Part shown: positions 31,533 through 54,394 of the stretch, in pieces
Numbering within the stretch: position 1 is the first letter of the stretch
Layout of the letters: each line of letters begins with the position of its first letter
Assembly: GCA_029565065.1 (NCBI GenBank)
Contig: JAKQOW010000036.1
Location: 59,846 to 123,845, forward strand
Source of the DNA: Acidobacteriota bacterium
GTDB taxonomy: Bacteria; Acidobacteriota; JAAYUB01
DNA length: 64,000 bases
Direction of reading: 5' to 3'
Made by a program: the position numbers and the translations under genes
Notes under the pieces: model-generated
What the model was told of the DNA's origin: nothing
Databases searched by the model: none
Seen by the model: only the letters and a program-made list of their open reading frames with translations

Positions 31533-31719
31533 CGGTGCTTCGGCGGACCCGGGGCGCGGGGCCGGCCGCCCGGGGTCAACCGGCTATTGTACCGGAACCG
31601 GCCGTTTCGCCAAGCGGTTTTTGCAGATGGGGGCTGTGTTACAATAACAGGCAAGGCCGATTTGACAACGGTCATCAGGCCCGGGGCGGGGCGGGGAGGA
31701 GCGGGAGGCATGCCCAACG

Positions 31720-34755: not shown

Positions 34756-34835
34756 TTTCCAAATCCCCGAATCACCGCAGTGGACACGGAGTCCACACGG
34801 GGAACCATTTGTCATTGGTCATCTGACATTTTTCA

Positions 34836-34892
34836 TTGGGCATTTCGGATTATTGGTTATTGGTGATTGCTAATATTTTATTGGCTATTTGG
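34836..34892. repeat. AT-rich degenerate heptamer block (TNATTGG)n
   Basis: gtcattgg...ttcattgg...attattgg ttattgg tgattgc...ttattgg c tatttgg seen directly. Confidence 0.5.
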
Positions 34893-34911
34893 AGACGAGT
34901 CCGTTCTTGCG

Positions 34912-35072
34912 GTTGATGGTTGATAGTTGATCGTTGATCGTGGGGAGCAGCTCCAAGATCCGAACCGCGAACCCCGAACCGCGAGACCCGATCTCCGAAG
35001 TCCGATTTCCGTGTCCGATTTCCGATGTCCGATGTCCGCACGGTGCGAGCGAGCCCTCAGCCTTTGCCTCGA
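34912..35072 (+). repeat. Composite ~160-bp repeat, copy A: (GTTGATN)4 - (CCGAAC-like)n - (GTCCGAT)n - GAGCC..CTCAGCC tail
   Basis: Same module order and orientation as copy B at 36410-36575. Confidence 0.7.
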
Positions 35073-35073
35073 T

Positions 35074-36207
35074 CTAAGGCGCGTTCCCCAGCGTCGAGCC
35101 TTCCCGTCGGTGATAACGCGAGAAGGCGATCCACGCTTTTTTCCCATCAAGCAGATAATGCACTTTCAACGTTTCCTGGCCTCTCTCGGGCTTGAAGGTG
35201 TGCTCGATGACGGCATCGACCCATATGCCCGGTTCCCGGTACCGGAAAGTGAAGAACTGGCCGTAATAATTGCCCGAAGCATCGCGCTGGTCGGCGAATT
35301 TCAGGAAGACGATCCCCTTGTGGTAACCCACGTAATAATCCGGAACGTGATCGTCATATTTTCGGGCGACGTAATATCCCCCTTCCCTGGAGATGACGGT
35401 CAAACCCTCCCGCCAGCTGCCGGTCAGGTCATTTGGAATGGTTGGCGGACTCGATGGCGGCGGATCGACGCGCTGGGTTGCGGCCAAGGTTCCCTTCGTC
35501 GCGGGCGAATCGAAGCCCGGTTCCAGGTTTAGACTGGCCAGCCGGACATCGTTTTCCAGGGTCCGGATCATTGCGTTGAATTCCCCAGTGGTTTTCAGGT
35601 TCGGAACATTCAGATTGTTCGCCTGAGCCTCGGTGAGAAAGGAACAGCCGAGCGAACCGCGCACCATTGTTCCCATGCTGAGGGCCTGATTGATTCCGCT
35701 TCTGGCCATCTCCAGGCGAATACTTTCCCCCACCTGGGTGGCGGCGACGGCCTGGCCGCTGTGGAATCCGAGATCGGCGACATATGTGTCGCAGGTGGAA
35801 AAGTTTTGGATGCCCTGATCGGACCTGAAGACCGTCGACATCGCCGTTTTCAAATTGGAGTGGCATCCCTCCAGATAAGCCATCTTCTGCCGGTTGTTCA
35901 TGCTGTCCGTCGCCTGGGGGAAGCGCCGCAGCAAGTCAACGATCCGGCGGATCTGGCCGGAATCGAAAGGGGGATCGAAGTACTGGTCGGCGAGCTGGTT
36001 CAGCATGGTGATGGCCGTGTTGATGTAGAGGTTGATGGAATTGGAATTTTCGGGAGTGATTCCCTGGTATTCGATGATCAGTGCGGTCATGCCGATGTTG
36101 CCCGCCGCGTTGAACACCAGGCGCTGGCGCTCGTTGGCTTTCAGTTGCTGGCCGCCCAGCCAAAGCAACAGGCAGGACACGATGAACAGGGCGGACCTGT
36201 TTCTCAT
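35074..36207 (-). CDS. Hypothetical secreted protein (377 aa), lower GC than surroundings
   Basis: Signal peptide MRNRSALFIVSCLLLWLGGQQLKA from ATG complement 36205-36207; visibly AT-richer codon usage; flanked by the two composite direct repeats. Confidence 0.6.
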   Translation of the reverse strand: MRNRSALFIVSCLLLWLGGQQLKANERQRLVFNAAGNIGMTALIIEYQGITPENSNSINLYINTAITMLNQLADQYFDPPFDSGQIRRIVDLLRRFPQATDSMNNRQKMAYLEGCHSNLKTAMSTVFRSDQGIQNFSTCDTYVADLGFHSGQAVAATQVGESIRLEMARSGINQALSMGTMVRGSLGCSFLTEAQANNLNVPNLKTTGEFNAMIRTLENDVRLASLNLEPGFDSPATKGTLAATQRVDPPPSSPPTIPNDLTGSWREGLTVISREGGYYVARKYDDHVPDYYVGYHKGIVFLKFADQRDASGNYYGQFFTFRYREPGIWVDAVIEHTFKPERGQETLKVHYLLDGKKAWIAFSRYHRREGSTLGNAP

Positions 36208-36304
36208 CCCGGCACCTCCGCTGGTCGGCGATCCTGGTGTTTCTAAATCGAAATGTAGGTTAATCACCGGTCGATGTCAATCGACAGTTGAATGGCAGGA
36301 TGGA

Positions 36305-36346
36305 GCCTGGGGTCTGGGACCTGGGACCTGGGTTTTTAGACCTGGG
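36305..36346. repeat. Tandem heptamer block (GACCTGG)n
   Basis: cctggg gtctgg gacctgg gacctgg ...gacctgg. Confidence 0.5.
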
Positions 36347-36409
36347 ATCTAGAGCGGGTTTTGGGAGCCGGGAACAAGGACCCAGCACCGAGGATCCAGG
36401 TCCGAGATA

Positions 36410-36575
36410 GTTGATGGTTGATCGTTGATGGTTGATCGTTGGGAGCGAGCCCCGAATCCCGAACCCCGAGCCCCGAACTCCGAGCCCCGAACCCCGAAGT
36501 CCGATGTCCGATGTCCGAACTCCGCAAGACGTGAACGAGCCTCCAGCCTCGAGCCTCGAGCCTCGATTCGGATGC
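36410..36575 (+). repeat. Composite ~160-bp repeat, copy B (direct repeat of 34912-35072)
   Basis: gttgatggttgatcgttgatggttgatcgtt - cccgaatcccgaaccccgagccccgaac... - gtccgatgtccgatgtccg - cgagcctccagcctcgagcctcgagcctcga. Confidence 0.7.
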
Positions 36576-36652
36576 GCCTTGACATTGTGCCGGTCGGCCG
36601 GTATCTTCGCGAGGATGACCATGCAATCCGGGTTGCGGAGTGCCCGCCCCGC

Positions 36653-39456: not shown

Positions 39457-41592
39457 ATGCGCAACGCGACTATCCGCATCCTGCTGACGGCGGTCCTGGC
39501 GGCCGCCGGCATCCTGGGCGCTCTGGCGGCGGATCCGCCGGCGCTTCAGTATCCCAAGACGGCCACGGTGGACCAGACGGACGACTACCACGGCACCAAG
39601 GTGGCCGACCCGTACCGCTGGCTCGAGGACGACAAGGCCCCGGCCGTGGCCGCCTGGGTGCAGGAGCAGAACGCCCTCACCTTTGGCTACCTGGGCCAGA
39701 TCCCCTACCGCGACGCCATCCGCCGGCGGCTGGAGACGCTGATGAACTACCCCCGCTACAGCGCGCCGTTCCGCGCCGGGGACTACTATTTCTTCTCAAA
39801 GAACGACGGCCTCCAGAACCAGAGCGTGACCTACTACCAGAAGGGCCTGACCGGTGAGCCCAGGGTCTTCCTCGATCCCAACACGCTCTCGAAGGACGGC
39901 ACCACGCGGGCCGGCCTGGCCGGTTTCTCCGAAGACGATCGCTACGTCGTGGTCCGCTACTCGGCGGCCGGCTCCGACTGGGGCGAGCTGAAGGTCATGG
40001 GCGTGGCCAGCCGCCGCGAGCTGTCGGACCACCTGAAGTGGGTCAAGTTCTCCGGCGCGGCCTGGCGCGGCAACGGCTTCTACTACAGCCGCTACGACGC
40101 CCCCAAGCCGGGCGAGGAGCTCACCGCCCGGAACGAGAACCAGAAGATCTACTTCCACAAGCTGGGCGATCCCCAGGCCAAGGACCGCCTCGTCTTCGAG
40201 GACCCCGAGCATCCGCTGCGCTACCACGGCGCCGGCGTGACCGAGGACGGGCGCTACCTCATCATCTCCAGCTCCGAGGGGACCCACGGCAACGAGGTGC
40301 GCGTCCGCGACCTGAAGCGGAAGGGCAGCCAGTTCCAGGTGCTCTGCCCGGGATTCCAGTACAACTACTCGATCATCGACAACGTGGGCGAGCGCTTCCT
40401 CGTCCACACGGACCACGGGGCGCCCAACTACCGGGTGGTCCTGGTCGATCCGCGCCGGCCCGGGCCGGAGAACTGGCAGACCGTCGTCGCCGAGAAGAAG
40501 GACGTGCTGCGCGGCGCCTCGACCGCCGGCGGCAAGCTGTTCTGCACCTACCTTGTGGACGTGTCCACCCGCGTTTACCAGCACGCCCTGGACGGCCGCC
40601 TGGAGAAGGAGATCGAGCTCCCCGGCCTGGGCTCGGCGGGCGGTTTCTACGGCAAGCGGAAGGACACGACCCTGTTCTACACCTTCACCAACTTCACCTA
40701 TCCGCCGGTGATCTTCAAGTACGACCTGAAGACAGGCCGGAGCGAGCTGTTCCGCCGCACTGAGCTCCCCTTCGACTCGACCGGCTTTGAGGCGAAGCAG
40801 GTGTTCTATCCCTCGAAGGACGGCACGAAGATCCCCATGTTCATCGTGCACAAGAAAGGGTTGGCGCTCTCCGGCGACAACCCCACCTACCTGTACGCCT
40901 ACGGCGGCTTCAACGCCAGCATGACGCCGTCGTTCAGCGCCACGATGATGCTCTGGCTGGAAAGCGGCGGCGTCTACGCCATGGCCAACCTGCGGGGCGG
41001 CGGCGAGTACGGCGAGGCGTGGCACCAGGCCGGCATGCGCGAAAAGAAGCAGAACGTGTTCGATGACTTCATCGCTGCGGCCGAGTACCTGATCCGCGAA
41101 AAGTACACCTCGTCGAAGCGGCTGGCCATCGCCGGCGGCTCCAACGGCGGGTTGCTGGTGGGCGCCTGCATGACCCAGCGCCCCGAGCTTTACCAGGTCG
41201 CCCTGCCGGCGGTGGGCGTCATGGATATGCTCCGCTTCCACAAGTTCACCGTTGGGTGGGGCTGGACCGTGGAGTACGGCACCAGCGACGATCCCGCCCA
41301 GTTCAAGTACCTGCAGGCGTATTCACCGCTCCACAACCTGAAGCCGGGCGTGCGCTATCCGGCCACGCTGGTCACCACCGCCGACCACGACGACCGCGTG
41401 GTGCCGGCCCACTCGTTCAAGTTCATCGCCGCACTGCAGGCGTGCCAGGCCGGCCCGGACCCGGTGCTCATCCGCGTCGAGACCCGCTCCGGCCACGGCG
41501 CCTCTTCGCTCACCAAGGGCCTCGACCTCCAGGCCGACGCCTGGGCGTTCACGTTCTGGAACATGGGGGTGAAGCCCAAAATCGGTGAATAG
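39457..41592 (+). CDS. Prolyl oligopeptidase (S9A family), secreted
   Basis: Signal peptide; N-terminal beta-propeller region ([22 protein letters not shown]); catalytic domain [11 protein letters not shown] (Ser), [16 protein letters not shown] (Asp), RSGHGAS (His). Confidence 0.85.
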
Positions 41593-41616
41593 GTGAGTGG
41601 GTGAATCGGGAGGAGC

Positions 41617-41658
41617 AAACAGTGAACAGTAAACAGTAAACAGTAGACAGTGAATAGT
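41617..41658. repeat. Tandem heptamer array (RAACAGT) x6
   Basis: aaacagt gaacagt aaacagt aaacagt agacagt gaatagt. Confidence 0.7.
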
Positions 41659-41673
41659 GGGGAAAATTGGTAA

Positions 41674-41720
41674 ATCGGGCAGAGGGATCCGCCGGGACCC
41701 TCTGCCCGATTCATTTCTTG
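41674..41720 (+). terminator. Hairpin downstream of prolyl oligopeptidase gene (possible terminator)
   Basis: 13-bp stem ATCGGGCAGAGGG / CCCTCTGCCCGAT with 11-nt loop, then TCATTTCTTG. Confidence 0.45.
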
Positions 41721-41809
41721 CACCTGGAACCTGCGAACCTGAGAACCTGCGGACCTGCGACCTGGAACCTGCGAACCTGGAACCTGAGAACCTGGAACCT
41801 GTGAACCTG
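41721..41809. repeat. Tandem 7/8-mer array (N)GAACCTG x~12
   Basis: cacctg gaacctg cgaacctg agaacctg cggacctg cgacctg gaacctg cgaacctg gaacctg agaacctg gaacctg tgaacctg. Confidence 0.75.
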
Positions 41810-41942
41810 AGAATCGGTGAACGATGACAGGCACGATCGCCCGGCGGGCAGGCGGGAGGTACCGCGACCGGGAGGGAGCGGCGCGAAAGCCCACCCCGCG
41901 AAACCAGGGGAGCCCGCGACACCATTCCATCGCCCGCGGCAG

Positions 41943-41981
41943 CGAGTTTCACGGCGCCCGTCCGGCGGACGGGCGCTACTG
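41943..41981 (+). repeat. 39-bp direct repeat copy 1 (contains 9-bp-stem palindrome GCCCGTCCG-GC-GGACGGGC)
   Basis: cgagtttcacggcgcccgtccggcggacgggcgctactg; 38/39 identical to copy at 42121. Confidence 0.7.
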
Positions 41982-42120
41982 TGCCGTAGACTGCGTCACA
42001 GCGAACAGTAGGCCGCACGCCCGCCGGGCGCGGCCCGTCCCCAAGGCACGATTAAGCGATTCGCTCACAGGTTCGAGTCGCAGCGCGGCAAGGACGGATC
42101 AGACTCCCGCCACTTCTTGC

Positions 42121-42159
42121 CGAGTGTCACGGCGCCCGTCCGGCGGACGGGCGCTACTG
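42121..42159 (+). repeat. 39-bp direct repeat copy 2
   Basis: cgagtgtcacggcgcccgtccggcggacgggcgctactg. Confidence 0.7.
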
Positions 42160-42186
42160 CCATTGTGAGGCAACGCGATCGGGGAC

Positions 42187-42215
42187 TTGACAACTGTCAC
42201 GTGACACATTACACT
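42187..42215 (+). promoter_or_regulatory. higBA promoter-like TTGACA-17-TACACT with embedded 12-bp palindrome TGTCACGTGACA (candidate HigA operator)
   Basis: Seen directly; palindrome spans 42195-42206 between -35 and -10 elements. Confidence 0.55.
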
Positions 42216-42221
42216 TGAGGC

Positions 42222-42503
42222 GTGATCAAGAGCTTCGTTGACAAGCATACGGCGGAACTGTTCACGACCGGCCGGTCCAGGCGATTGCCGCCAGACATGG
42301 TGCGTCGGGCGAGAAGAAAGCTCGAGTCCGTCGATCTGGCCGCGCGTCTGGATGACCTTCGGGTTCCTCCGGGCAATCGCCTCCACAAACTCGGCGGAGA
42401 CCGGGAAGGACAGCATGCGATCACCATCAACGACCAGTGGCGCATCTGCTTCCGGTTCGTGGAGGGCGCTGCCTACGATGTTGAAGTGACGGATTATCAC
42501 TGA
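42222..42503 (+). CDS. higB: HigB toxin (RelE/ParE superfamily mRNA interferase)
   Basis: GTG start; product MIKSFVDKHTAELF...LHKLGGDREGQHAITINDQWRICFRFVEGAAYDVEVTDYH closely parallels plasmid/Vibrio HigB (MIKSF..., KLHPLKGDREGYWSI..., ...DYH). Confidence 0.85.
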   Translation: MIKSFVDKHTAELFTTGRSRRLPPDMVRRARRKLESVDLAARLDDLRVPPGNRLHKLGGDREGQHAITINDQWRICFRFVEGAAYDVEVTDYH

Positions 42504-42516
42504 AGCGAGGTGCGGG

Positions 42517-42831
42517 ATGAGCATCCTGAACACGAGACGGAAGATCGTTCGCCCCATCCACCCGGGGGAGATACTTCGGGAGGACTTCCTGCCTGACTAT
42601 GGCCTGACGGCTTCCGGTCTCGCGGCGGCGCTGGGCGTTTCGCGACAGACCGTGAATGAGCTGCTGCGCGAGCGTCGGTCGGTCAGCCCGGAGATGGCGC
42701 TCCGGCTTTCGCGTCTGTTTGGCAACTCCCCCGAGTTCTGGCTGAATGCTCAGCGTACGGTCGACCTCTGGGATGCAGCCCAATCTATCGGACGGGAGGT
42801 CGAGCGGATCAAGCCTTTGTCTGTGGCCTGA
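42517..42831 (+). CDS. higA: HigA antitoxin (XRE-family HTH)
   Basis: IHPGEILREDFL and HTH LAAALGVSRQTVNELLRERRSVSPEMALRLSRLFGNSPEFWLNAQ, typical HigA. Confidence 0.85.
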   Translation: MSILNTRRKIVRPIHPGEILREDFLPDYGLTASGLAAALGVSRQTVNELLRERRSVSPEMALRLSRLFGNSPEFWLNAQRTVDLWDAAQSIGREVERIKPLSVA

Positions 42832-42906
42832 CAACGACTTGCAGCGGATGGTCCACTGCGCGGCCCGCCGCTGAACCGGAGCGTTAGGCGGCTTACGACA
42901 TCATCA

Positions 42907-43848
42907 TTGCGGAGTATCGATTTGGAAGAAAAAACTGAAATTACGACCTTGCTTGAGAGAATTGCGATCGCGCTTGAGCGAATAGCAGACTTGCTTGCCA
43001 GACCAGACCAATCAGAAGATTCGTCTGGTCTGGTTGATTCAGAACCTCCTATTGCTCCCGAACCAACAGAACCTGCGCCTTCTACCAACGATATTACCTG
43101 GCTGCGGGACTTTCTTGCTTCACGGGGGATTTCAATAAAGACCATTCCTCAGGAGCAAGAGAGCGATGAAACTCTCGACAAGATAGCCTTGTTCATTGGG
43201 AACAGGCTAGAATCAGTCAATAGTGTTCTCGATTCCATCAAGGCGAATATGAATGTTGGGAGACCGTTCAGTCTGAATCTGAGAAACGAGTCCCAACAAA
43301 CCGTTGCAGATACAACCAATCTGTGTACAAATCTCTATAACATCGCCTTTCTTACAGCATACTACTATCAGAAATCCCCAGCCTATCAGCTTTATGCAAC
43401 CCCAAGCACATCGCCCAGAGCATTGAATTTTTATTCCGGACAATGGTTGGAGCGATTCATCAAGATCCAAGCCGTCTCGCTACTCAGAAGCAAATCGCTT
43501 GAATTCTCCTATATCTGCAATGCTCAAATTTCATTGCCAAAGGGGGATGATTTTGAACTGGATATGTTGTTTGAGGCAGAGGGAGAAGTGTTCTGGCTAG
43601 AAGCGAAAACTGGTGATTATAGAAGGCATATCGAAAAATATTCCAAGATGTCCAAGACTTTAGGTCTAGACCGCTCACATACCTTTATGATATTGGCGGA
43701 TGGCTCGGTAACTGACGCTCTGGCGCGCGACTTGGGTAATTTGTTTGGAATGACTGTGGCAAGGGTTGAGAAATTTGCAGAGCAATTGACCAAAGTGCTA
43801 CCCAAAAACCGCAATGAGACAGTTCAAGGTCGAGAAATATCACCATGA
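42907..43848 (+). CDS. Hypothetical low-GC protein with C-terminal PD-(D/E)xK nuclease-like motif
   Basis: No in-frame ATG near start (TTG/alternative start); Pro-rich linker; GDDFELDMLFEAEGEVFWLEAKTG fits D...E-x-K restriction-endonuclease-like core; GC well below genome average. Confidence 0.5.
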   Translation: MRSIDLEEKTEITTLLERIAIALERIADLLARPDQSEDSSGLVDSEPPIAPEPTEPAPSTNDITWLRDFLASRGISIKTIPQEQESDETLDKIALFIGNRLESVNSVLDSIKANMNVGRPFSLNLRNESQQTVADTTNLCTNLYNIAFLTAYYYQKSPAYQLYATPSTSPRALNFYSGQWLERFIKIQAVSLLRSKSLEFSYICNAQISLPKGDDFELDMLFEAEGEVFWLEAKTGDYRRHIEKYSKMSKTLGLDRSHTFMILADGSVTDALARDLGNLFGMTVARVEKFAEQLTKVLPKNRNETVQGREISP

Positions 43849-43965
43849 CCAGACGCCCAACAAGCGCTTGCAGCGGACGCTCGCTACGCTCGCAGCGCTG
43901 AAGCGCCAGCCGTTAGCCCGAAAGAGATTCGGGGCGACATGAGGACCAATGTGATATGAGTAAGG

Positions 43966-45432
43966 ATGACCATGTTTGAACAAGCTTTCAAGAATATTGA
44001 CGATGTGCTTTGGAAGGATGCCGGGTGTACCAGTGAACTGGATTACACCGAGCAGACTTCCTGGCTGCTATTCCTGAAATACCTCGATGCACTGGAGGCC
44101 GACCGTGCCACGGCTGCCGCCCTGAACGGCAAGACCTACACCCACATTCTGGATAAACCATACCGCTGGGGCTCCTGGGCCGCGCCGAGGGGCAAGGATG
44201 GCTCGATTGACCACAACACCGCTCTAACCGGCGACGACCTGATCCAGTTCGTCAACGGCAAGCTTTTCCCTTACCTGCACGGCTTCAAGCAGAAGGCTAG
44301 CGGGCCGAACACGGTCGAATACAAGATCGGCGAGATTTTCGGCGAGATCAAGAACCGCATCCAGAGCGGCTACAACCTACGCGAGGTCATTGACCAAATT
44401 GATGAACTGCGCTTCGCGTCGCAAGTTGAGAAGCACGAGCTTTCGCACCTGTACGAGGCGAAGATCAAGAACATGGGCAACGCCGGGCGCAACGGCGGCG
44501 AGTATTACACCCCGCGCCCGCTCATCCGCGCCATCGTGGCGGTGGTCGCGCCCAAGCTCGGCGAGACCATCTGCGACCCGGCGGTCGGCTCGGCGGGCTT
44601 CCTGTGCGAGGCATTCGAATATCTCAAGGCTCAGAACCCGAAGCGCACCACCGCCCAGGACCGCGCCTTGCAGGAGCGCACCTTCTTCGGCAAGGAAAAG
44701 AAGTCGCTGGCCTACGTCATCGCGATCATGAACATGATCCTGCACGGCATCGAGGCGCCCAACATCCTCCACGTCAACACGCTGGCCGAGAACCTGGCCG
44801 ACGTGCAGGAAAAGGACCGATTCGACATCATCCTCGCCAATCCGCCTTTTGGCGGCAAGGAGCGCAAGGAGGTCCAGCAGAACTTCCCAATTCGCACCGG
44901 TGAAACGGCTTTTCTCTTCCTCCAGCACTTCATCAAGGTACTCAAGGCCGGCGGCCGGGCGGGGATCGTCATCAAGAATACGTTTCTGAGCAACACCGAC
45001 AATGCCTCCGTAAGCCTGCGGCGGAAACTGCTGGAGGAATGCAACCTGCATACCGTGCTCGACTGCCCCGGCGGCACGTTCCAGGGCGCGGGCGTGAAGA
45101 CCGTGGTGCTGTTTTTCGAGAAGGGCGCGAAGACCAGGAAGGTGTGGTACTACCAACTCGACCCCGGCCGCAGCCTCGGCAAGACCAACCCGCTCAATGA
45201 TGACGACCTCGCCGAGTTCGTGCAGCTCCAGAAGACCTTCGCCGACTCACCCAAGAGCTGGAGCGTTGACGCCAATTATATTGATCCGACCACTTTCGAC
45301 CTCTCCGTGAAGAACCCCAACGGCGGCGAGACCGTGACCCACCGCAGTCCGCAGGAGATCATGGAAGAAATCGCCGTCCTAGACATCGAAAGCGCTGAGG
45401 TGCTGGAGAAGATCAGGGGGCTGCTGAAATGA
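43966..45432 (+). CDS. hsdM: Type I restriction-modification system, DNA methyltransferase subunit M (N6-adenine)
   Basis: HsdM N-domain; SAM-binding DPAVGSAGFL; catalytic NPPFG motif. Confidence 0.9.
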   Translation: MTMFEQAFKNIDDVLWKDAGCTSELDYTEQTSWLLFLKYLDALEADRATAAALNGKTYTHILDKPYRWGSWAAPRGKDGSIDHNTALTGDDLIQFVNGKLFPYLHGFKQKASGPNTVEYKIGEIFGEIKNRIQSGYNLREVIDQIDELRFASQVEKHELSHLYEAKIKNMGNAGRNGGEYYTPRPLIRAIVAVVAPKLGETICDPAVGSAGFLCEAFEYLKAQNPKRTTAQDRALQERTFFGKEKKSLAYVIAIMNMILHGIEAPNILHVNTLAENLADVQEKDRFDIILANPPFGGKERKEVQQNFPIRTGETAFLFLQHFIKVLKAGGRAGIVIKNTFLSNTDNASVSLRRKLLEECNLHTVLDCPGGTFQGAGVKTVVLFFEKGAKTRKVWYYQLDPGRSLGKTNPLNDDDLAEFVQLQKTFADSPKSWSVDANYIDPTTFDLSVKNPNGGETVTHRSPQEIMEEIAVLDIESAEVLEKIRGLLK

Positions 45433-46571
45433 AGAAGGGGTGGGAAACGAGGCGTATCGATGAGCTTTGCATAGTGGTCGCCGGGCAATCGCCGGAGGGG
45501 AAGTTCTATAACTCCGAGGGTCGGGGCCTTCCGTTCTATCAAGGTAAAAAGGACTTTGGGGAAAAGTTCATCGAGGCACCCACCACTTGGACAACGCAGA
45601 CGACCAAGATTGCCAAACAGGGCGATATCTTGATGTCCGTCCGCGCACCTGTTGGCCCTGTGAATTTTTCCACCGAGGAAATCTGCATTGGGCGCGGATT
45701 AGCTGCGATACGCTGCGGGACACAACTGAATCGAGATTTTCTTTTCTACCAGTTGCTCCACTTACAGCCTGAGATTGCTGGGAAAGAAGGCGCAGTGTTC
45801 GCATCAATCAACAAATCCGAAATCGAAGCCTTGCCGCTCGCGTTTACCCCGCTCCCCGAACAGCAGCGGATCGTGGGGGTATTGGATGAAACTTTTGCTG
45901 GTCTGGCCACCGCCCAAGCCAACGCCGAAAAGAACCTCCTGAACGCCCGCGCCCTATTCGAAAGCCACATGAATGACGTGTTCAGCAAGCGGGGCGAAGG
46001 GTGGGTGGAGAAGACGTTGGGGAAAATCGGCAAGGTCTCCATGTGCAAGAGAATCTTCAAGGAGGAGACGACAGCGACCGGAGACATTCCATTCTACAAG
46101 ATTGGGACTTTCGGAAAAGAGCCCGATGCATTCATTTCAAGCCAAACCTACAATGAATACAGGGCGAGATACCCCTTTCCTAAAAAAGGCGATATTCTTA
46201 TCTCGGCGTCGGGAACAATCGGGCGACGCGTCAGATACGACGGTGAACCCGCATATTTTCAGGACTCGAATATCGTCTGGATTGATAACGATGAAAGACA
46301 GGTGTCGAACGACTACCTGTATCACTTCTACGGAGCCTGTGAGTGGAACTCGACGAAAGGCGCTACCATATCGCGACTCTACAATGACAATCTGAGGCAA
46401 ATCGCTATTGCATTCCCTGAATCGAGTCAGGAGCAGCGGCGGATTGTCACCCAACTCGACTCCCTCTCCGCCGAAACCCGCCGCTTGGCCGCCATCTACG
46501 AGCGGAAGCTGGCGGCGCTGGAGACGCTGAAGAAATCGCTTCTACATCAGGCGTTTAACGGAGAACTGTGA
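45429..46571 (+). CDS. hsdS: Type I restriction-modification system, specificity subunit S
   Basis: Overlaps hsdM by ATGA; two target-recognition domains separated by a conserved central helix (LPEQQRIVGVLDETFAGLATAQANAEKN) and C-terminal helix (QEQRRIVTQLDSLSAETRRLAAIYERK). Confidence 0.85.
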   Translation: MKKGWETRRIDELCIVVAGQSPEGKFYNSEGRGLPFYQGKKDFGEKFIEAPTTWTTQTTKIAKQGDILMSVRAPVGPVNFSTEEICIGRGLAAIRCGTQLNRDFLFYQLLHLQPEIAGKEGAVFASINKSEIEALPLAFTPLPEQQRIVGVLDETFAGLATAQANAEKNLLNARALFESHMNDVFSKRGEGWVEKTLGKIGKVSMCKRIFKEETTATGDIPFYKIGTFGKEPDAFISSQTYNEYRARYPFPKKGDILISASGTIGRRVRYDGEPAYFQDSNIVWIDNDERQVSNDYLYHFYGACEWNSTKGATISRLYNDNLRQIAIAFPESSQEQRRIVTQLDSLSAETRRLAAIYERKLAALETLKKSLLHQAFNGEL

Positions 46572-46572
46572 C

Positions 46573-47496
46573 ATGAAAAGCTACTACCGAGTCATGTTGG
46601 GTGAAAAGAGCAAGTATGCCGAGGAGTGTTTTGCAGCGAACTGCATTGCCGCCGGCTTCATCCCTGATCAGAACTTGAAAGGAAAGTTGCCCGATCAATG
46701 GCGCACCTTCAATAAACAGTTTATTCCCGTGTTCCTCGCCGCTCATCCGGAGAAAACAAAAATCGGTGCAGGGCTAGCTTGTGGCGCGTTGTGGACGGTA
46801 TGCAAAGGGATGCAAAATGGCGATATAGTCTTATGTCCTGACGGCACGGGCAGATACCGGGCCGGTGAAATCAGTGGCGATTACTTTTATGAGCCCAGCA
46901 AGCACTTGTGCCATAGACGGCCTGTGACTTGGCTGAACGTGATGATTGACCGGGCCACGATGAGTGAGCCGCTGCGCAAATCCACCGGTTCAATCGGCAC
47001 GGTGAGCAACATCACGCTGCACCGCGATGAAATTGAAAAGCACACCGGCGGCGTTTCAACTCCGAAACTAATTTCCACCGACACCACAGTTGAGGACGCC
47101 TCTGCTTTCGCATTAGAAGAGCATTTGGAGGATTTCCTCGTCAAAAATTGGTCTCACACCGAACTCGGCAAAGATTACACAATTTACGAGGAGGACGGAG
47201 AGAAAGCACAGCAATACCAGACCGACACAGGACCGTTGGACATCCTCGCGATCAGCAAGGACAAAAAACATCTGTTGGTTGTGGAGTTGAAAAAGGGACG
47301 GGCCAGTGATCTGGTGGTCGGACAGACTCTCCGCTACATGAGCTTCGTCCAGGATGAATTGGCTGAGGAGGGACAGACAGTGCGGGGGTTGATAATCGCT
47401 CACGAGGACGATCAAAAAATCCGGCGCGCCCTCAGCATGACACCCAACATTTCCTTCTATCGCTACCAAGTCAGTTTCAAGTTAATGAAGGGATGA
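46573..47496 (+). CDS. Embedded cassette gene A: hypothetical protein with C-terminal PD-(D/E)xK (NucS/Mrr-cat-like) nuclease motif
   Basis: GPLDILAISKDKKHLLVVELKKGRASDLVVGQTLRYMSF ... VRGLIIAHEDD fits D-x(n)-E-L-K nuclease core; N-terminal ~150-aa domain of unknown function; starts 2 nt after hsdS stop. Confidence 0.6.
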   Translation: MKSYYRVMLGEKSKYAEECFAANCIAAGFIPDQNLKGKLPDQWRTFNKQFIPVFLAAHPEKTKIGAGLACGALWTVCKGMQNGDIVLCPDGTGRYRAGEISGDYFYEPSKHLCHRRPVTWLNVMIDRATMSEPLRKSTGSIGTVSNITLHRDEIEKHTGGVSTPKLISTDTTVEDASAFALEEHLEDFLVKNWSHTELGKDYTIYEEDGEKAQQYQTDTGPLDILAISKDKKHLLVVELKKGRASDLVVGQTLRYMSFVQDELAEEGQTVRGLIIAHEDDQKIRRALSMTPNISFYRYQVSFKLMKG

Positions 47497-47497
47497 C

Positions 47498-47593
47498 ATG
47501 AACGAAGCTGAAACGAGAGCCGAGCATATTGATCCCGCGCTGGCGGCGTTGAAGAAGTCGCTGCTGCTCCTGGCCTTTGCAGGAGAACTGTGA
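47498..47593 (+). pseudogene. Chimeric remnant: 51-nt hsdR 5' fragment (MNEAETRAEHIDPALAA) fused to 45-nt hsdS 3' fragment (LKKSLLLLAFAGEL-stop)
   Basis: 47498-47548 is 47/51 nt identical (all 4 differences synonymous) to hsdR start at 48391-48441. 47549-47593 parallels the hsdS 3' end at 46527-46571 (LKKSLLHQAFNGEL-stop). Confidence 0.8.
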
Positions 47594-48375
47594 TGAATAT
47601 GAAGAAATACTGCTACGACACAGAACCGATAGCCGGAATTGAGAAGCTGTGTGAGCGAATGACGGGGAAGGCGTTACAGTCTCCGTATCGTTCCACTGTG
47701 CCTTTACTGAGCCTCGTTGAACACAGTCAGCCTGAATGGCATTCGCTATTGGCGTCGTTGGGGACGCCGCCTGACCGAACGGTCCACTTTGAATACTGCA
47801 TCGCCTCGCCAAAGCCTGGAGGAAATCCGTCACAGACAGACGCCCTGCTGATGTCAGATTCAACTGTGTGGGCCGTTGAGGCGAAGTGGACAGAACCTCG
47901 GTATGAAACAGTGGCGAAAAGAATAAGCAAACCAGAGTCGGACGGCGCTGATCCGCGAACCACGGTTGATGGCTGGCTGAAATATCTCCAGCCGTTTACA
48001 ACACGAGATTTGCGCGTCGATGACTTTTTGGATGTGGTATATCAAGTATTGCATCGCGCCGCATCGGCGTGTGCTGTCGCAACCGATCTGCAACTCTCGC
48101 CGCACCTTGTGTATCTGCATTTTCATCCATCCCCGCTGGAGAGTTCCGCGACGACCGATCAGTATGTCTCGGACCTTCAGCATCTATATGCGTTGCTCGG
48201 CAATCCCTCCACCCTGAAGATCACCGTGGTTGAAATGCCGCTCAAGCCGACTGCGGAATTTGATGCCATCAAGGGTCTGGATAAGCGAGATCCAGGATCT
48301 GCCGCTGTGGTGAAAGCGGCGCTGTGCAAAGAGCCATTATTTACTTTCGGAAGCCCGATCATTACGCGATCATGA
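47593..48375 (+). CDS. Embedded cassette gene B: hypothetical protein with PD-(D/E)xK restriction-endonuclease-like core
   Basis: HFEYCIASPKPGGNPSQTDALLMSDSTVWAVEAKWTE contains E...D...E-A-K pattern; start overlaps remnant stop (TGATG). Confidence 0.55.
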   Translation: MNMKKYCYDTEPIAGIEKLCERMTGKALQSPYRSTVPLLSLVEHSQPEWHSLLASLGTPPDRTVHFEYCIASPKPGGNPSQTDALLMSDSTVWAVEAKWTEPRYETVAKRISKPESDGADPRTTVDGWLKYLQPFTTRDLRVDDFLDVVYQVLHRAASACAVATDLQLSPHLVYLHFHPSPLESSATTDQYVSDLQHLYALLGNPSTLKITVVEMPLKPTAEFDAIKGLDKRDPGSAAVVKAALCKEPLFTFGSPIITRS

Positions 48376-48390
48376 GGTCAGATCTCACGC

Positions 48391-50718
48391 ATGAACGAAG
48401 CCGAAACCAGAGCCGAGCACATTGACCCCGCGCTGGCGGCGGCGGGCTGGGGCGTCGTGGAGGGCAGCCGCGTGAGGCGGGAGTTTCCCATCACGCCGGG
48501 GCGCATCGAGGGGCTGGGCCGGCGCGGAAAGCCGCTGACCGCCGATTACGTTCTGGAATACCGCAACCGCAAACTGGCCGTAATCGAGGCCAAGGCGTGG
48601 GATCAAGAGTTGACCGAAGGAGTGGCGCAGGGCAAGAACTACGCGGGCAAGCTGCAGGTGCGCTTTGTCTATGCCACAAACGGGCGGGGCATCTACGCGA
48701 TAGACATGCAGACGGGCAAGGAAGGCGAGATCGCCGCCTACCCAACCCCGGACGAACTCTGGGCGATGACCTTTGCCGAGGAGAACGCCTGGCGGGACCG
48801 GTTCGCGGCGGTGCCGTACGAGGACAAGGGCGGCTCGCATCCGACGCGTTACTACCAGGACATCGCCATCGAGCGGGTGATGCAGGCCATTTCGGAGAAC
48901 CGGACGCGCATCCTGCTGACGCTGGCCACCGGAACGGGGAAAACCTTCATCGCATTCCAGATCGCGTGGAAGCTGTTCCATGCGCGCTGGAACCTCTCCC
49001 GCGAACCGACGCGCCGGCCGCGCATCCTGTTCTTGGCCGACCGGAACATCCTGGCGAACCAGGCTTACAACGCCTTCTCCGCCTTCCCCGAGGACGCGCT
49101 GGTGCGGATCGAGCCGGGCGACATCCGCAAGAAAGGCAAGGTGCCGAAGAACGGCAGCCTGTTTTTCACCATCTTCCAGACGTTCATGAGTGGTCCGCCC
49201 AAGGACGGCCGACCGTCACCCTATTTCGGCGAATACCCGCCGGACTTCTTCGACTTTATCGTGATTGATGAGTGCCATCGCGGCGGGGCGAACGACGAGA
49301 GCACCTGGCGTGGCATCCTGGACTACTTCGCGCCCGCCGTGCAGCTCGGCCTCACCGCCACACCCAAGCGCGATGAGAACGTGAACACCTACCGCTATTT
49401 CGGCGAGCCGGTCTATATGTATTCGCTCAAGGACGGGATCAACGACGGCTTCCTGACCCCGTTCAAGGTGAAGCAGATCCAGACCACGCTGGACGAGTAC
49501 GTGTACACGCCGGACGACACGGTGATCGAAGGCGAGATCGAGGAGGGCAAGCGGTACGAAGAGGCGGACTTCAACCGCATCATCGAGATCAGGAAACGCG
49601 AGGAATACCGGGTCAGAATCTTCATGGATCTGATCAACCAGAACGAGAAGACGCTGGTGTTCTGCGCGAACCAGGCCCACGCCCTGGCCGTGCGCGACCT
49701 CGTCAACCAGCTGAAGACCAGCAAGGACCCGAACTACTGCCAGCGGGTGACGGCGAACGACGGTGAGCTGGGCGAGCAGCATTTGCGCGACTTCCAGGAC
49801 AACGAGAAGACGATCCCGATGGTCCTGACCACGTCACAGAAGCTCTCGACGGGGGTGGACGCTCGGAACATCCGCAACATCGTCCTGATGCGGCCCATCA
49901 ACCGGCTCATCGAGTTCAAACAGATCATCGGGCGCGGCACCCGGCTCTATGACGGCAAAGATTACTTCACGATCTACGACTTCGTGAATGCGCACGAGCA
50001 TTTCAGCGATTCTGGGTGGGACGGCGAGCCGATGGCCCCGGAACCGCACGAGATCTATCCGCCGCACGAACCGAGCCTGGCAGGCGAAGTGCGGGAACCC
50101 AGGGAGAAATATCCAAAACGCCAGCGGGTGAAAGTGAAACTGGCGGACGGCAAGGAGCGCACCATCCAGCACATGATGATGACGAGCTTCTGGCATCCCG
50201 ACGGCACGCCCATGTCCGCGCAGCAGTTCATGGAACTGCTCTTCGGAAAGCTCCCGTACTTCTTCAAGGACGAAGCCGAACTCCGGGCCATTTGGAGTGC
50301 GCCTGACACGCGCAAAAAGTTATTGCAGGGCTTGGCCGAGAAGGGCTTCGGGCATGACCAACTGGCTGAGATGCAGACGATCATCGACGCCGAGAAGAGC
50401 GATCTGTTCGACGTGCTCGCCCATGTTGCCTACGCCTTGCCGCCCGTCACGCGTGAAGTCCGCGCCGCGAATGCGAGAGTTCACATCAATACCCGTTTCA
50501 GCGACAAGCAGAAGGTGTTCCTCGATTTCGTGCTCCAGCATTACATCACGGTCGGCGTGGAAGAGCTCGATCAAGAAAAGCTTACCCCGCTGCTCCTGCT
50601 CAAGTACCACAATTCCCTGGCGGATGCCGTTGCCGACCTGGGCGGCCGGCCCGAAGAGATAAGCAAAGCCTTCGCCGGGTTCCAGAAATATCTCTATCAG
50701 CAAACGTCTGCGGCATGA
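48391..50718 (+). CDS. hsdR: Type I restriction enzyme, R subunit (nuclease plus SF2 helicase)
   Basis: N-terminal nuclease motif LAVIEAKAW; Walker A LATGTGKT; DEAH-like VIDECHR; motif VI QIIGRGTRL. Confidence 0.9.
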   Translation: MNEAETRAEHIDPALAAAGWGVVEGSRVRREFPITPGRIEGLGRRGKPLTADYVLEYRNRKLAVIEAKAWDQELTEGVAQGKNYAGKLQVRFVYATNGRGIYAIDMQTGKEGEIAAYPTPDELWAMTFAEENAWRDRFAAVPYEDKGGSHPTRYYQDIAIERVMQAISENRTRILLTLATGTGKTFIAFQIAWKLFHARWNLSREPTRRPRILFLADRNILANQAYNAFSAFPEDALVRIEPGDIRKKGKVPKNGSLFFTIFQTFMSGPPKDGRPSPYFGEYPPDFFDFIVIDECHRGGANDESTWRGILDYFAPAVQLGLTATPKRDENVNTYRYFGEPVYMYSLKDGINDGFLTPFKVKQIQTTLDEYVYTPDDTVIEGEIEEGKRYEEADFNRIIEIRKREEYRVRIFMDLINQNEKTLVFCANQAHALAVRDLVNQLKTSKDPNYCQRVTANDGELGEQHLRDFQDNEKTIPMVLTTSQKLSTGVDARNIRNIVLMRPINRLIEFKQIIGRGTRLYDGKDYFTIYDFVNAHEHFSDSGWDGEPMAPEPHEIYPPHEPSLAGEVREPREKYPKRQRVKVKLADGKERTIQHMMMTSFWHPDGTPMSAQQFMELLFGKLPYFFKDEAELRAIWSAPDTRKKLLQGLAEKGFGHDQLAEMQTIIDAEKSDLFDVLAHVAYALPPVTREVRAANARVHINTRFSDKQKVFLDFVLQHYITVGVEELDQEKLTPLLLLKYHNSLADAVADLGGRPEEISKAFAGFQKYLYQQTSAA

Positions 50719-50790
50719 TAGGTGCGAGAAGATAATAGGTTAACAAACAGTTACAGCGGACGGCTCGCAGCGCGGCCCTCCGCTTAACCG

Positions 50791-51522: not shown

Positions 51523-51541
51523 GCGCGAACCAGCAAATCCA

Positions 51542-54354: not shown

Positions 54355-54394
54355 ACGCCCGATGCGTGCACAACCTCACTTCCGAGGAGGCGAC

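Follow-up and report, generated by a model that had tools for sequence, protein, structure and literature searches.

Chained heptanucleotide repeat arrays in intergenic spacers of an Acidobacteriota/Aminicenantes-like genome

Introduction

In the stretch of DNA studied here (64,000 nucleotides, hereafter the window), a prolyl oligopeptidase gene is followed by two arrays of tandemly repeated seven-nucleotide units, and similar arrays lie in other spacers nearby. What kind of DNA are these arrays, how do they come and go, and do they switch the genes beside them? Heptanucleotide arrays were reportedly described in cyanobacteria in 1990, when Mazel and colleagues are said to have described the STRR of heterocyst-forming species. 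To our knowledge, nobody knows why the unit has seven bases or what such arrays do. A previous inspection of the window, made from its letters only (the sequence-only reading), had called the arrays STRR-like and uncharacteristic of high-GC anaerobes, and had proposed that they vary promoter spacing by strand slippage or serve as recombination substrates.

The STRRs of cyanobacteria have a 7-bp repeat unit, are able to form hairpins and lack a known function, although greater transcript stability or translational coupling has been proposed (PMC2670836). In Haemophilus influenzae, 7-bp repeats upstream of hmw1A and hmw2A mediate heptanucleotide phase variation (PMC8262952). For many prokaryotes, heptanucleotides are also the most abundant class of long SSRs, whose proposed origin is slippage of the polymerase, as far as the survey by Mrazek, Guo and Shah (2007) is represented in later accounts (PMC4679880, PMC4692102).

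Results

Arrays in three intergenic spacers

Chained, imperfect 7-nt tandem arrays occupy three intergenic spacers of the window, at 34806-35073 (locus A), 36306-36566 (locus B) and 41617-41809 (locus C), with at least eight unrelated unit sequences within 7 kb. In a self-match scan of the whole window (periods 2-15), period-7 segments and their 14-nt multiples were confined to these three loci; the remaining signals came from locus C, whose mixed 7/8-nt array scored at periods 8 and 15, and from a period-6 run at 57125-57162, which lies within a gene. Six period-7 segments were found, compared to none in each of 50 first-order Markov simulations, and pattern searches returned 4 and 13 matches where shuffled sequences gave an expectation of 0.00 and 0.01. 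Similar to the long SSRs defined by Mrazek and colleagues, these are tracts of 5-11-nt units that exceed chance length (0 to 0.01 expected), with an excess of period 7 over neighbouring periods and a mainly intergenic location, both in the window and in 120 metagenome loci (see below). We confirmed that the arrays lie entirely outside called genes (gene calls and a GC3-based map), are non-coding and comprise several unit types, for which STRR-like is a fair label. The imperfection of the units (68-91% matches by TRF; longest perfect run about 2.4 units) argues against high mutability.

The spacers differ in their setting: the arrays lie upstream of the -35 boxes of both flanking genes at locus B, between convergent gene ends at locus A and around a terminator-like hairpin at locus C. 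A location in divergent promoter regions, as had been suggested for some of the arrays, therefore holds for 36306-36566 only, and neither for 34806-35073 (convergent ends) nor for 41617-41809 (a gene end). G-quadruplex motifs (at least four tracts of three or more Gs with 7-nt spacing) were found in two of about 11 arrays, both at locus B, while a motif scan of the arrays at 41617-41809 found none. A tRNA scan of the window found nothing.

Locus C follows the prolyl oligopeptidase gene

Locus C is located 3' of the end of the prolyl oligopeptidase gene. A short GGTGAAT-like array with a period of 7-8 nt (41580-41606; TRF and sequence) overlaps the stop codon of this gene, and a similar GGTGAAT array is found in locus A of two relatives, L217 and L206. 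Array 1, (RAACAGT)6 (41617-41658; sequence, TRF and pattern search, 0 expected by chance), indeed consists of the six units counted previously, namely AAACAGT, GAACAGT, AAACAGT, AAACAGT, AGACAGT and GAATAGT (four exact, two with one mismatch). Array 2, (N)GAACCTG (41721-41809; sequence and TRF), holds 12-13 units, in agreement with the earlier estimate of about twelve, with a period alternating between 7 and 8 nt (period 8/15 and 84-88% matches by TRF). Between the two arrays, a GC-rich hairpin on the plus strand (CGGGCAGAGGG...CCCTCTGCCCG, then AUUCAUUUCUU; 41674-41719) dominates the centroid fold and is, judging from this predicted structure, the probable terminator of the oligopeptidase gene; a simple terminator scan did not call it.

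Loci A and B flank a gene of 377 amino acids

The other heptamer blocks indicated by the sequence-only reading were also real, with YATTGGT, (GTTGATN)4 and about 12 CCGANNN units at 34806-35038, and about 4-6 GGGACCT units, (GTTGATN)5, (CCGANNN)11 and (CGAGCCT)4 at 36306-36566. The left edge of locus A is formed by a terminator-like hairpin directly 3' of the stop codon of a GGDEF gene (CCCCG...GTGGAC-loop-GTCCAC...CGGGG; 34764-34802, plus strand; MFE and centroid folds, sequence). It is followed by array 1, a degenerate (Y/C)ATTGGT array of about 8.7 copies with 68% matches (34806-34869; TRF and sequence), array 2, (GTTGATN)4, with 4.3 copies, 91% matches and only the seventh base variable (34912-34941; TRF and sequence), and arrays 3-4, about 12 CCGANNN units in a single 7-nt register that drift from CCGARCC to CCGAWNT (34956-35038; TRF and pattern search). 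The remnant of a CGAGCCT array (CGAGCCCTCAGCCTTTGCCTCGAT; 35050-35073), recognised by alignment with locus B and with orthologues, adjoins the stop codon of a minus-strand gene of 377 or 397 amino acids (35074-36267). This lineage-specific hypothetical gene has a lower GC3 than the neighbouring genes, and its product of 377 or 397 amino acids has no Pfam match.

On the other side of the 377-aa gene, locus B consists of array 1, (GGGACCT/CCTGGGA)n with about 4-6 units (36306-36347; TRF) and a plus-strand G-quadruplex motif at 36309-36332, array 2, (GTTGATN)5 with a 14-nt period and 95% matches (36406-36441; TRF), arrays 3-4, (CCGANNN)11 in one register with the same change from CCGARCC to CCGAWNT (36446-36524; TRF and pattern search) and a minus-strand G-quadruplex motif at 36450-36474, and array 5, (CGAGCCT)4.4 (36536-36566; TRF). 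The 377-aa gene thus has a composite array block of identical type on either side, in direct orientation, and the blocks are conserved in the relatives L206/L217, L211 and L212. That a composite block is kept at both ends of one gene in relatives of 80-95% identity is a counterpoint to a reading based on slippage.

The GTTGATN units (n = 9) vary at the seventh base alone, and the CCGA core is almost invariant in about 23 CCGANNN units. This uneven spread of the variation, a further counterpoint to slippage, could reflect selection on the core motif, although propagation of 14- or 21-nt units can mimic such a pattern.

Predicted promoters at locus B and the case for phase variation

Locus B is the only one of the three loci in a divergent promoter region. 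A sigma70-like promoter (TTGACA-17-TACATT, 10/12; 36280 to 36252, minus strand) is predicted for the 377-aa gene, with its -35 box at 36275-36280, and a second one (TTGACA-17-TATCTT, 10/12; 36579-36607, plus strand) for the MFS transporter genes, with its -35 box at 36579-36584. The former box is readable at the corresponding site in L206, L211 and L217, and a TTGACT box is found at the site of the latter in the same three relatives. All locus B arrays lie between the two predicted -35 boxes and outside any -35/-10 spacer, with array 5 ending 12 nt upstream of the MFS promoter -35 box; the idea that slipped strands vary promoter spacing here finds no support in this arrangement. Being upstream of both promoters, locus B is probably not transcribed.

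If the arrays were contingency loci, slipped-strand changes in unit number would alter promoter geometry and switch or grade the flanking genes, as for hmw1A and hmw2A. Such a role would fit the position of locus B between divergent promoters, the variation of copy number among relatives and the precedent of H. influenzae (PMC8262952). However, the arrays are found upstream of both -35 boxes and neither in a -35/-10 spacer nor in a promoter-to-start interval, and loci A and C follow gene ends instead of being placed in a reading frame or a promoter. Long perfect tracts are also lacking, no uninterrupted run exceeding about 2.4 units, and imperfect units lower the rate of slippage. As five consensus assemblies from different samples were moreover equal in length (see below), we consider this explanation very unlikely, and we do not regard the arrays as phase-variation switches of the classical kind.

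Five assemblies of the strain agree

Array lengths were identical in all five assemblies of the strain, which were obtained from different samples with different assemblers and whose consensus sequences differ by 0-3 substitutions per 15-22 kb. Slippage itself was not observed, the five assemblies being identical in all arrays, and this is a counterpoint to slippage as the origin of the arrays. In assembly L003, locus A seemed to differ in length by 155 bp; this was discarded as a polymorphism, because the difference consists of a scaffold gap of 100 Ns inside the array, the ends of which are duplicated. This gap is the one feature that would suggest an artefact of short-read metagenome assembly; yet the four other assemblies agree base for base through every array despite different samples and assemblers, and orthologous arrays are present in relatives, so that an artefact is almost certainly not the explanation.

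Orthologous spacers differ between relatives

Orthologous spacers were compared in relatives of 80, 88-89, 91 and 95% identity. Where the flanking proteins were 80-95% identical, the unit types of the relatives followed one another in the same order with differing copy numbers, and the arrays thereby share with long SSRs a change in copy number between related genomes. Comparing array lengths, as the sequence-only reading had advised, thus gave no difference at the strain level and clear differences between relatives. At locus C, the 91% relative L218 carries array 1 with a different unit make-up, (GTRAACA)7, its homology to the window ends at 41659, and (GGAGATA)x3 takes the place of the missing array 2, while the 95% relative L217 has neither array. 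At locus A, array 1 is missing in L217 and the segment 34976-35038 is kept in L217/L206 with 84% identity. At locus B, array 1 is missing in L217, L206 and L211, the exact GTTGATN units of array 2 number one in L217, two in L211 and three in L212, and the CGAGCCT array near the MFS -35 box keeps 3-4 units in L206/L217 and L211. Orthologous arrays, and the partner arms of inverted pairs (see below), have degenerated at all positions. Overall, these comparisons show a turnover of the arrays as fast as the divergence of closely related species: their order persists, copies change and whole arrays come and go.

Homology to L217 breaks at 34975, 36292-36478 and about 41593-41594, in each case within or at the edge of an array. 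This 95% relative lacks a GGDEF gene and a 13.6-kb segment of the window, the latter with an island of low GC that encodes HigBA and a type I R-M system. The arrays coincide with points at which relatives differ in gene content, and of the earlier proposal that the arrays are recombination substrates a plausible link remains, as these breaks in homology to L217 concern all three loci. At their far borders (31625 and 55186), the two variable segments carry no arrays, which ruled out that arrays mark both borders of these segments. An nhmmer profile of the composite block, run over about 2.4 Mb (about 71 kb of distinct DNA of this genome), found full copies solely around the 377-aa gene and its orthologues. 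Within this limited sample, the block was accordingly rejected as a dispersed mobile element, and the many dispersed copies that define REP/BIME or MITE-type elements, with their palindromic unit or terminal inverted repeats, were not found.

The arrays could be scars or hot spots of recombination, serving as entry and exit sites of cassettes and islands by homologous or illegitimate recombination. The direct repeats of the composite block around the 377-aa gene with its lower GC3 would be the product of such an integration, the GGDEF gene and the 13.6-kb island segment are missing from the 95% relative with break points at or inside arrays, and heptamer repeats of Bacteroidetes and Beggiatoaceae have been proposed to take part in gene rearrangement (PMC4679880). 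On the other hand, the far boundaries are free of arrays, the block-gene-block layout is old and stable over the 80-95% relatives, no further copy of the block occurs in the DNA searched, and fast-evolving spacers would match break points anyway. We therefore judge this explanation unlikely.

A fourth locus and the folding of the arrays

A fourth array locus was found in the same genome about 7 kb beyond the window (L215:15322-15473), bringing the sample of about 71 kb to four spacers with at least eight unit types. With this locus and the arrays of the relatives, the arrays are not a curiosity confined to a single place, a possibility that had been considered at the outset. At this fourth locus, (AAACAGT)n is opposed to (ACTGTTC)n between convergent peptidase genes, and the predicted fold is very stable (-72.8 kcal/mol, z = -8.97). 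The ability to form hairpins through inverted arrays, a trait of STRRs, is thus present in this genome. A hairpin of this kind would probably terminate transcription from both sides or protect 3' ends. Loci A, B and C showed no folding excess on either strand (z for RNA -0.6, -1.5 and 0.0; for DNA +2.1 and +0.5). The plus strand of locus B folds more poorly than 197 of 200 shuffles, and in the plus-strand RNA of locus A CAUUGG can pair with CCGAUG through G-U pairs, with a z of just -1.5. The window arrays were consequently dropped as candidate hairpins or structured RNAs.

These results also bear on the possibility that the arrays function as transcribed RNA, in the form of UTR stabilisers, small RNAs or translational elements. 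Loci A and C probably belong to the 3' untranslated regions of the genes before them, effects on transcript stability and translational coupling have been proposed for STRRs (PMC2670836), and the inverted pair of L215 forms a very stable hairpin; but the window gave no Rfam 15 match at the gathering score, the three window loci have no excess of structure on either strand, and locus B, upstream of both promoters, is probably untranscribed. An RNA function thus appears quite improbable.

Distribution of heptamer arrays and possible binding sites

The host genome has a GC content of 65%. For two genes, the best relatives among the matches listed were MAGs named Acidobacteria or Aminicenantes, and the oligopeptidase protein was 69% identical to the best of the matches listed; the organism may therefore be placed near Acidobacteriota/Aminicenantes, as far as the names of best matches indicate. 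In a metagenome scan, GTTGATN arrays occurred in contigs of 24-70% GC. The statement that such arrays are best known from cyanobacteria and not from high-GC anaerobes was too strong, since an excess of heptanucleotide SSRs has been reported for many bacteria, among them Xanthomonas with its high GC and the anaerobe Geobacter metallireducens (PMC4679880, PMC4692102, PMC2700814). A limited literature search returned no paper on heptanucleotide repeats with Acidobacteria and none on tandem repeats with Aminicenantes.

Period 7 dominated the 120 metagenome loci, with 245 arrays compared to at most 52 for any other period; the loci had been selected by one heptamer, and more than 100 of the period-7 arrays are other, adjoining heptamers. 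Among 380 heptamer arrays, inverted pairs outnumbered direct pairs of the same unit by 30 to 6. The GTTGAT arm always came first in inverted GTTGATN pairs (16-20 versus 0-2), for which only the upstream versus downstream asymmetry was used, as reversed-only and complement-only controls resemble rotations of the repeats. A purely thermodynamic role as a hairpin falls short of explaining this polarity. Some units recur across phyla, which is a further counterpoint to slippage. Four exact matches were found between window units and unrelated loci, where 0.5 were expected (equalled in 4 of 500 shuffles); the excess was not significant with one mismatch permitted. Contig L132 combines CCGAAGT/CCGATGT, GTTGATG and CATTGGT, and contig L013 carries CAGTAAA and TGGTCAT.

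Conserved cores next to variable positions (GTTGAT+N, CCGA+NNN), the recurrence of window units in the unrelated contigs L132 and L013, the excess of exact matches, the polarity of the inverted pairs and the CGAGCCT array that every relative has retained directly before the -35 box of the MFS promoter could also be explained by a protein that reads the arrays in a 7-nt register of DNA or RNA, with a regulatory, architectural or insulating function; in Geobacter, similar elements are putative sites of a global regulator (PMC2700814). However, we found no candidate protein, and for at least eight unrelated units in 7 kb either numerous binding proteins or one of very relaxed specificity would have to be assumed. 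No position is spared from degeneration in partner arms and orthologous arrays, arrays are gained or lost between 91-95% relatives while the neighbouring genes are retained, and the shared-vocabulary test loses significance with one mismatch. Binding sites are therefore an unlikely explanation, if a slightly better one than the recombination scars above. A broader proposal would treat the arrays as more than products of slippage, namely as cis elements common to several phyla that draw on a small stock of units (such as GTTGATN, CATTGGT, RAACAGT and CCGAWGT), keep their cores conserved and pair in inverted form with one polarity only. A conserved machinery would read or write them in a 7-nt register, and they would mark the borders of cassettes and islands, where they would guide recombination or insulate transcription units; we regard this as doubtful, to the same degree as recombination scars.

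Discussion

We favour, with moderate confidence, the explanation that the arrays are non-coding DNA of the heptanucleotide long-SSR (STRR) type, made and resized by slippage in spacers that coincide with breaks in synteny. Replication slippage and unequal recombination would create and resize the arrays, in units of 7 nt and 14- or 21-nt multiples, and arrays would be tolerated solely where the reading frame and the core promoter stay undisturbed. Direct arrays, with their low self-complementarity, would chiefly be spacer DNA, whereas facing arrays of complementary units would fold into a long hairpin where convergent genes meet.

Similar to STRRs, the arrays consist of tandem 7-bp units, of several families within the about 71 kb of this genome covered here, are non-coding and can form hairpins if inverted. 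We take CATTGGT of the window to be a rotation of the STRR unit TTGGTCA, and RAACAGT to be one base off CAACAGT; the majority of window units are GC-rich and presumably unrelated to STRR1-3. The host differs in being Acidobacteriota/Aminicenantes-like and no heterocyst-forming cyanobacterium, and the arrays are thus STRR-like and not STRRs in the strict sense. With the long SSRs of Mrazek and colleagues they share tracts above chance, the dominance of period 7, the intergenic location and slippage as the proposed origin, as far as that survey is represented in the accounts used here; the survey concerned cultivated genomes, and chains of differing heptamers in a fixed order conserved in relatives are not described in those parts of it.

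The intergenic heptamers GGGAATC of Xanthomonas and GGGGAYT of Nostoc have conserved and variable positions, and those of Xanthomonas form inverted pairs and vary in length and sequence among close species between the same gene pairs (Rehm et al. 2015, PMC4692102). The arrays described here resemble them in all these traits and in the G-quadruplex motifs of two locus B arrays, but only two of about 11 arrays are G-quadruplex-capable, and many unit types occur without a single dominant family. TAACTGA direct repeats are found in marine Beggiatoaceae, some Cyanobacteria and Bacteroidetes, and in Bacteroidetes and Beggiatoaceae heptamer repeats have been proposed to contribute to the rearrangement of genes (MacGregor 2015, PMC4679880). 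They, too, are intergenic arrays in distant phyla, with assemblages of mixed heptamers in near-identical spacers; TAACTGA repeats mostly precede start codons, over the ribosome-binding site, whereas the window arrays are placed ahead of promoters or beyond the ends of genes. Geobacter metallireducens, an anaerobe of fairly high GC, has GC-rich tandem heptamers (GGGACCG x4 in 49 places, close to GGGACCT of locus B, and MTYCTGA x5 in 15/16 sites), for which the annotation gives a putative role as sites of a global regulator (Aklujkar et al. 2009, PMC2700814). These elements have a fixed unit number, form a dispersed, defined family and are also intragenic, unlike the window arrays with their varying unit numbers and a composite block found around one gene only. 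The hmw1A/hmw2A repeats are likewise heptanucleotides arranged in tandem close to promoters, and variable in number, but they are perfect, lie in the interval between promoter and gene and vary within populations, whereas the window units are imperfect, outside core promoters and identical in five assemblies.

For practical purposes, arrays of this kind disrupt short-read assemblies, as seen from the gap in L003, and phase-variation switch is unsuitable as their default label in annotation. Heptamer arrays as such are an already known class of repeats, and the present case adds a lineage of uncultured, Acidobacteriota/Aminicenantes-like bacteria to it. With the spacers available from five identical assemblies as well as from relatives of 80, 88-89, 91 and 95% identity, nature provides a well-controlled comparison, in which the order of the arrays is kept, copy number shifts and whole arrays are gained or lost at breaks in synteny.

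Results

Heptamer arrays in three intergenic spacers

The heptamer arrays that the sequence-only reading had described at 41617-41658 and 41721-41809, together with two further blocks, were all found in the sequence, by Tandem Repeats Finder and against simulations. At locus C, array 1 (41617-41658) consists of six RAACAGT units, and array 2 (41721-41809) of 12-13 units of GAACCTG plus or minus one extra base, its period alternating between 7 and 8 nt; Tandem Repeats Finder also recovers both. The locus A cluster (34806-35038) comprises YATTGGT, (GTTGATN)4 and an unbroken (CCGANNN)~12 run, and the locus B cluster (36306-36566) comprises (GGGACCT)n, (GTTGATN)5, (CCGANNN)11 and (CGAGCCT)4. In a self-match scan of the window (periods 2-15), period-7 segments and their 14-nt multiples were limited to these three loci, the only remaining signals being the mixed 7/8-nt locus C array and an intragenic period-6 run (57125-57162). 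Six period-7 segments were counted in the window compared to none in 50 Markov simulations, and pattern searches returned 4 and 13 matches where 0.00 and 0.01 were expected. The arrays are real and far beyond chance. A 21-nt repeat of 2.6 copies (42944-42997) within a 308-aa hypothetical gene downstream of HigA is coding and unrelated to them.

Gene calls of public assemblies and a GC3-based map placed every array outside genes, bearing out the earlier claim of an intergenic location; arrays occupy three of about ten long spacers of the window, the other long spacers inspected being free of them. A Reg_prop/GGDEF gene (+) and a 377/397-aa hypothetical gene (-) converge on locus A, which separates their 3' ends; locus B stands between the hypothetical gene and two divergently transcribed MFS transporter genes, and locus C 3' of the prolyl oligopeptidase gene. 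The suggestion that some arrays lie in divergent promoter regions thus applies to locus B and not to locus A (convergent ends) or locus C (after a gene end).

Promoters and folding

At locus B, a consensus scan predicted two sigma70-like promoters with 10/12 matches each, at 36280->36252 (-) and 36579-36607 (+), where 0.5 were expected from shuffles; relatives show a TTGACA or TTGACT box at the corresponding positions. The arrays (36306-36566) occupy the interval between the two predicted -35 boxes without touching a -35/-10 spacer, and probably remain untranscribed. The arrays lie outside core promoters, and the proposed slipped-strand switch of promoter spacing fails on each of its three defining features, namely position, tract perfection and strain-level variation. 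In Haemophilus influenzae hmw1A, phase variation proceeds through perfect 7-bp repeats (PMC8262952). Public gene calls let the first MFS gene begin at either 36572 or 36653 (441 aa vs 414 aa), and the 414-aa call is more likely because the start of the 441-aa call lies upstream of the promoter predicted at 36579-36607. Of only six G-quadruplex motifs in the 64-kb window, two lie inside the locus B arrays, one per strand between the divergent promoters (36309-36332, +; 36450-36474, -).

Single-stranded folding of loci A, B and C was no better than that of shuffles (z = -0.6, -1.5 and 0.0 as RNA; +2.1 and +0.5 as DNA), and the plus strand of locus B folded worse than 197 of 200 shuffles. The centroid fold of locus C is dominated by a hairpin at 41674-41719 that is GC-rich and has a U-rich tail; array 1 precedes it and array 2 follows it. 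Neither Rfam families nor tRNAs were found in the whole window. A GC-rich hairpin element (CACGGCGCCCGTCCGGCGGACGGGCGCTACTG) is present twice in direct orientation (41947-41985 and 42125-42163) in the stretch from locus C to the HigB gene, and the two copies look like a small REP-type repeat.

The arrays are not a single-locus feature. To the left of the window, about 7 kb beyond its edge in the same genome, a fourth locus consists of (AAACAGT)~7, 23 nt and (ACTGTTC)~9, its unit being identical to that of locus C array 1. M48 and M23 peptidase genes converge on this locus, which sits exactly between their stop codons. On folding, this inverted pair forms a single long hairpin (-72.8 kcal/mol, z = -8.97). 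Such pairs of inverted arrays, which form long hairpins, may serve as two-way terminators or 3'-end protectors.

Stability within the strain and turnover among relatives

The exact oligopeptidase protein is present in 13 contigs, and five loci were fetched from ENA, JGI and NCBI (GCA_035348115.1) for strain comparison. These differed from the window by 0-3 substitutions over 15-22 kb, and array lengths were all equal. An apparent length difference in array A of GCA_035348115.1 (DAOPQQ010000001.1) was a 100-N scaffold gap (5370-5469 of the fetched locus) with ~55 bp duplicated on both sides and not a polymorphism. As the five loci agree and this one difference is a scaffold gap, the arrays are no artefacts, and within the strain they are stable at the consensus level; they do break or mis-join short-read assemblies. 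The closest named relatives of the 377-aa protein and, among the matches listed, of the oligopeptidase are Acidobacteria or Candidatus Aminicenantes MAGs, which suggests that the host is an Acidobacteriota/Aminicenantes-like organism of ~65% GC.

Length polymorphism between genomes, the check named in the sequence-only reading, was seen between close species and not within the strain. Homologues of the 377-aa gene were found at 89% (L206, of the same lineage as L217), 88% (L212), 80% (L211) and 73% identity (L207-L210). In L206, L212 and L211, one composite block stands on each side of the gene, in the order (GGGACCT)n - (GTTGATN)n - GGGAGYGAG - (CCCCGAR)n - (TCCGAWN)n - short unique stretch - (CGAGCCT)n. 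Across relatives the unit order is constant and copy numbers vary: GTTGATN units in exact form number 4 at each of loci A and B of the window, 1 in L217, 2 in L211 and 3 in L212, and the GGGACCT array is absent in L217, L206 and L211. No arrays lie beside the homologue in the 73% relative. In a profile search of ~2.4 Mb of fetched sequence, ~71 kb of it distinct DNA of this genome, full block copies were found only flanking the 377-aa gene and its homologues. In the window, this lineage-specific hypothetical gene (35074-36267) lies between ~165-bp direct block copies (34910-35074 and 36406-36569), an arrangement kept in relatives of 80-95% identity that could permit loop-out deletion of the gene or may be the trace of an old integration. 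At locus C, the spacer of a 91% relative (L218) carries (GTRAACA)7 after the stop codon and then (GGAGATA)3 replacing the hairpin and the GAACCTG array, and that of the 95% relative L217 is entirely without arrays. Turnover of the arrays is thus seen among close relatives, and stability within the strain.

Coincidence with synteny breaks

By BLAST, L217 and the window share a backbone of ~90-93% identity, with homology interrupted at three places. At the first (31625/34975), L217 and L206 lack the stretch 31626-34975, which holds the Reg_prop/Y_Y_Y/GGDEF diguanylate cyclase gene and locus A's left half, and in both relatives a TPR-SLT gene directly follows the 377-aa gene. The second (36292-36478) covers the left half of locus B. 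At the third, homology stops exactly with the oligopeptidase stop codon, 41594 being the first base beyond it, and a 13.6-kb segment (41594-55186) follows with a HigB/HigA pair, HsdM, HsdS and HsdR of a type I restriction-modification system, and other genes, its GC content being 46-61% over ~42-52.6 kb compared to 65-74% in the backbone; L217 has a different 4.4-kb segment instead (B12-binding protein, FtsX/ABC, RND adaptor). The far borders of both variable segments carry no arrays. Since all three breaks fall at or within array loci, the arrays coincide with plastic junctions, which is compatible with arrays causing the plasticity or merely accumulating there and does not show which.

Distribution in metagenomes and other genomes

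When metagenome contigs were scanned for (GTTGATN)4, at least 120 stretches were returned, those listed lying on contigs with a GC content of 24-70%. Among the matches listed (120 loci, preselected by this single heptamer), Tandem Repeats Finder found 245 period-7 arrays, no other period exceeding 52, and more than 100 of the period-7 arrays were other heptamers adjoining the selected one. Among these matches, many arrays adjoin gene ends, with a complementary array following within 10-130 nt. Inverted pairs outnumbered direct same-unit pairs 30 to 6 among 380 heptamer arrays from all non-redundant loci (the metagenome part being the matches listed). A complementary arm lay downstream of 16-20 of 94 GTTGATN arrays and upstream of 0-2 of 94 (matches listed, L086-L205); because an inverted repeat reads alike on both strands, GTTGAT as first arm is a true polarity. 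Loci fetched with the oligopeptidase protein also carry heptamer arrays beside that gene, in an Acidobacteria MAG (L007), a Sphingobacteriales MAG (L013; CAGTAAA, TGGTCAT), Pedobacter and Saprospiraceae. Exact matches to window units occurred in unrelated loci 4 times vs 0.5 expected, a number reached by 4 of 500 shuffles; with one mismatch allowed, sharing showed no significant excess.

Three of the fetched loci show further arrangements. Just upstream of the oligopeptidase gene in L007 (RA.bin124; 9540-9910), a ~120-nt unit is repeated three times in tandem, each with an inverted heptamer pair, GGCRTAN facing CCTTRCG, around a short centre, and further arrays follow the gene. A sediment metagenome contig unrelated to ours (L132, OSEO01002223, GC 0.67; ~600-1000) chains CCGAAGT/CCGATGT, GTTGATG and CATTGGT arrays in one spacer, with units as in locus A and the middle array reversed in orientation. 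The arrays of L190 (440-721 and 1257-1577) are TTTAGGG/CCCTAAA telomere-type repeats, so that at least one contig among the metagenome matches is probably eukaryotic.

Discussion

The arrays are non-coding, dominated by period 7 and built from many unit types. Heptanucleotide repeats made up the commonest long-SSR class in most surveyed genomes, with polymerase slippage proposed as their origin, according to the accounts of Mrazek 2007 in PMC4679880 and PMC4692102. The STRRs of cyanobacteria, to which the sequence-only reading likened the arrays, are hairpin-capable 7-bp repeats of no known function (PMC2670836), and TAACTGA arrays are common to Beggiatoaceae, Cyanobacteria and Bacteroidetes (PMC4679880). 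Xanthomonas GGGAATC repeats have conserved and variable positions, form inverted pairs and, when close species are compared, differ in length at the same gene pairs (PMC4692102), and Geobacter metallireducens carries four GGGACCG units at 49 places (PMC2700814). Our literature search found no paper joining heptanucleotide repeats with Acidobacteria, or tandem repeats with Aminicenantes.

The arrays would arise and change size as units of 7, 14 and 21 nt slip or are exchanged unequally, and direct arrays would be mostly spacer DNA. Such a neutral origin leaves four features unexplained: cores that stay constant (GTTGAT+N, CCGA+NNN), some units that recur in different phyla, inverted GTTGATN pairs whose arms keep a fixed order, and a composite block long retained on either side of the 377-aa gene. 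On account of these four features, a sequence-specific function keeps a small chance, although we consider it improbable. The arrays add a new lineage to a known, still unexplained repeat class, and the value of the case lies mainly in providing a clean comparative example of heptamer arrays.
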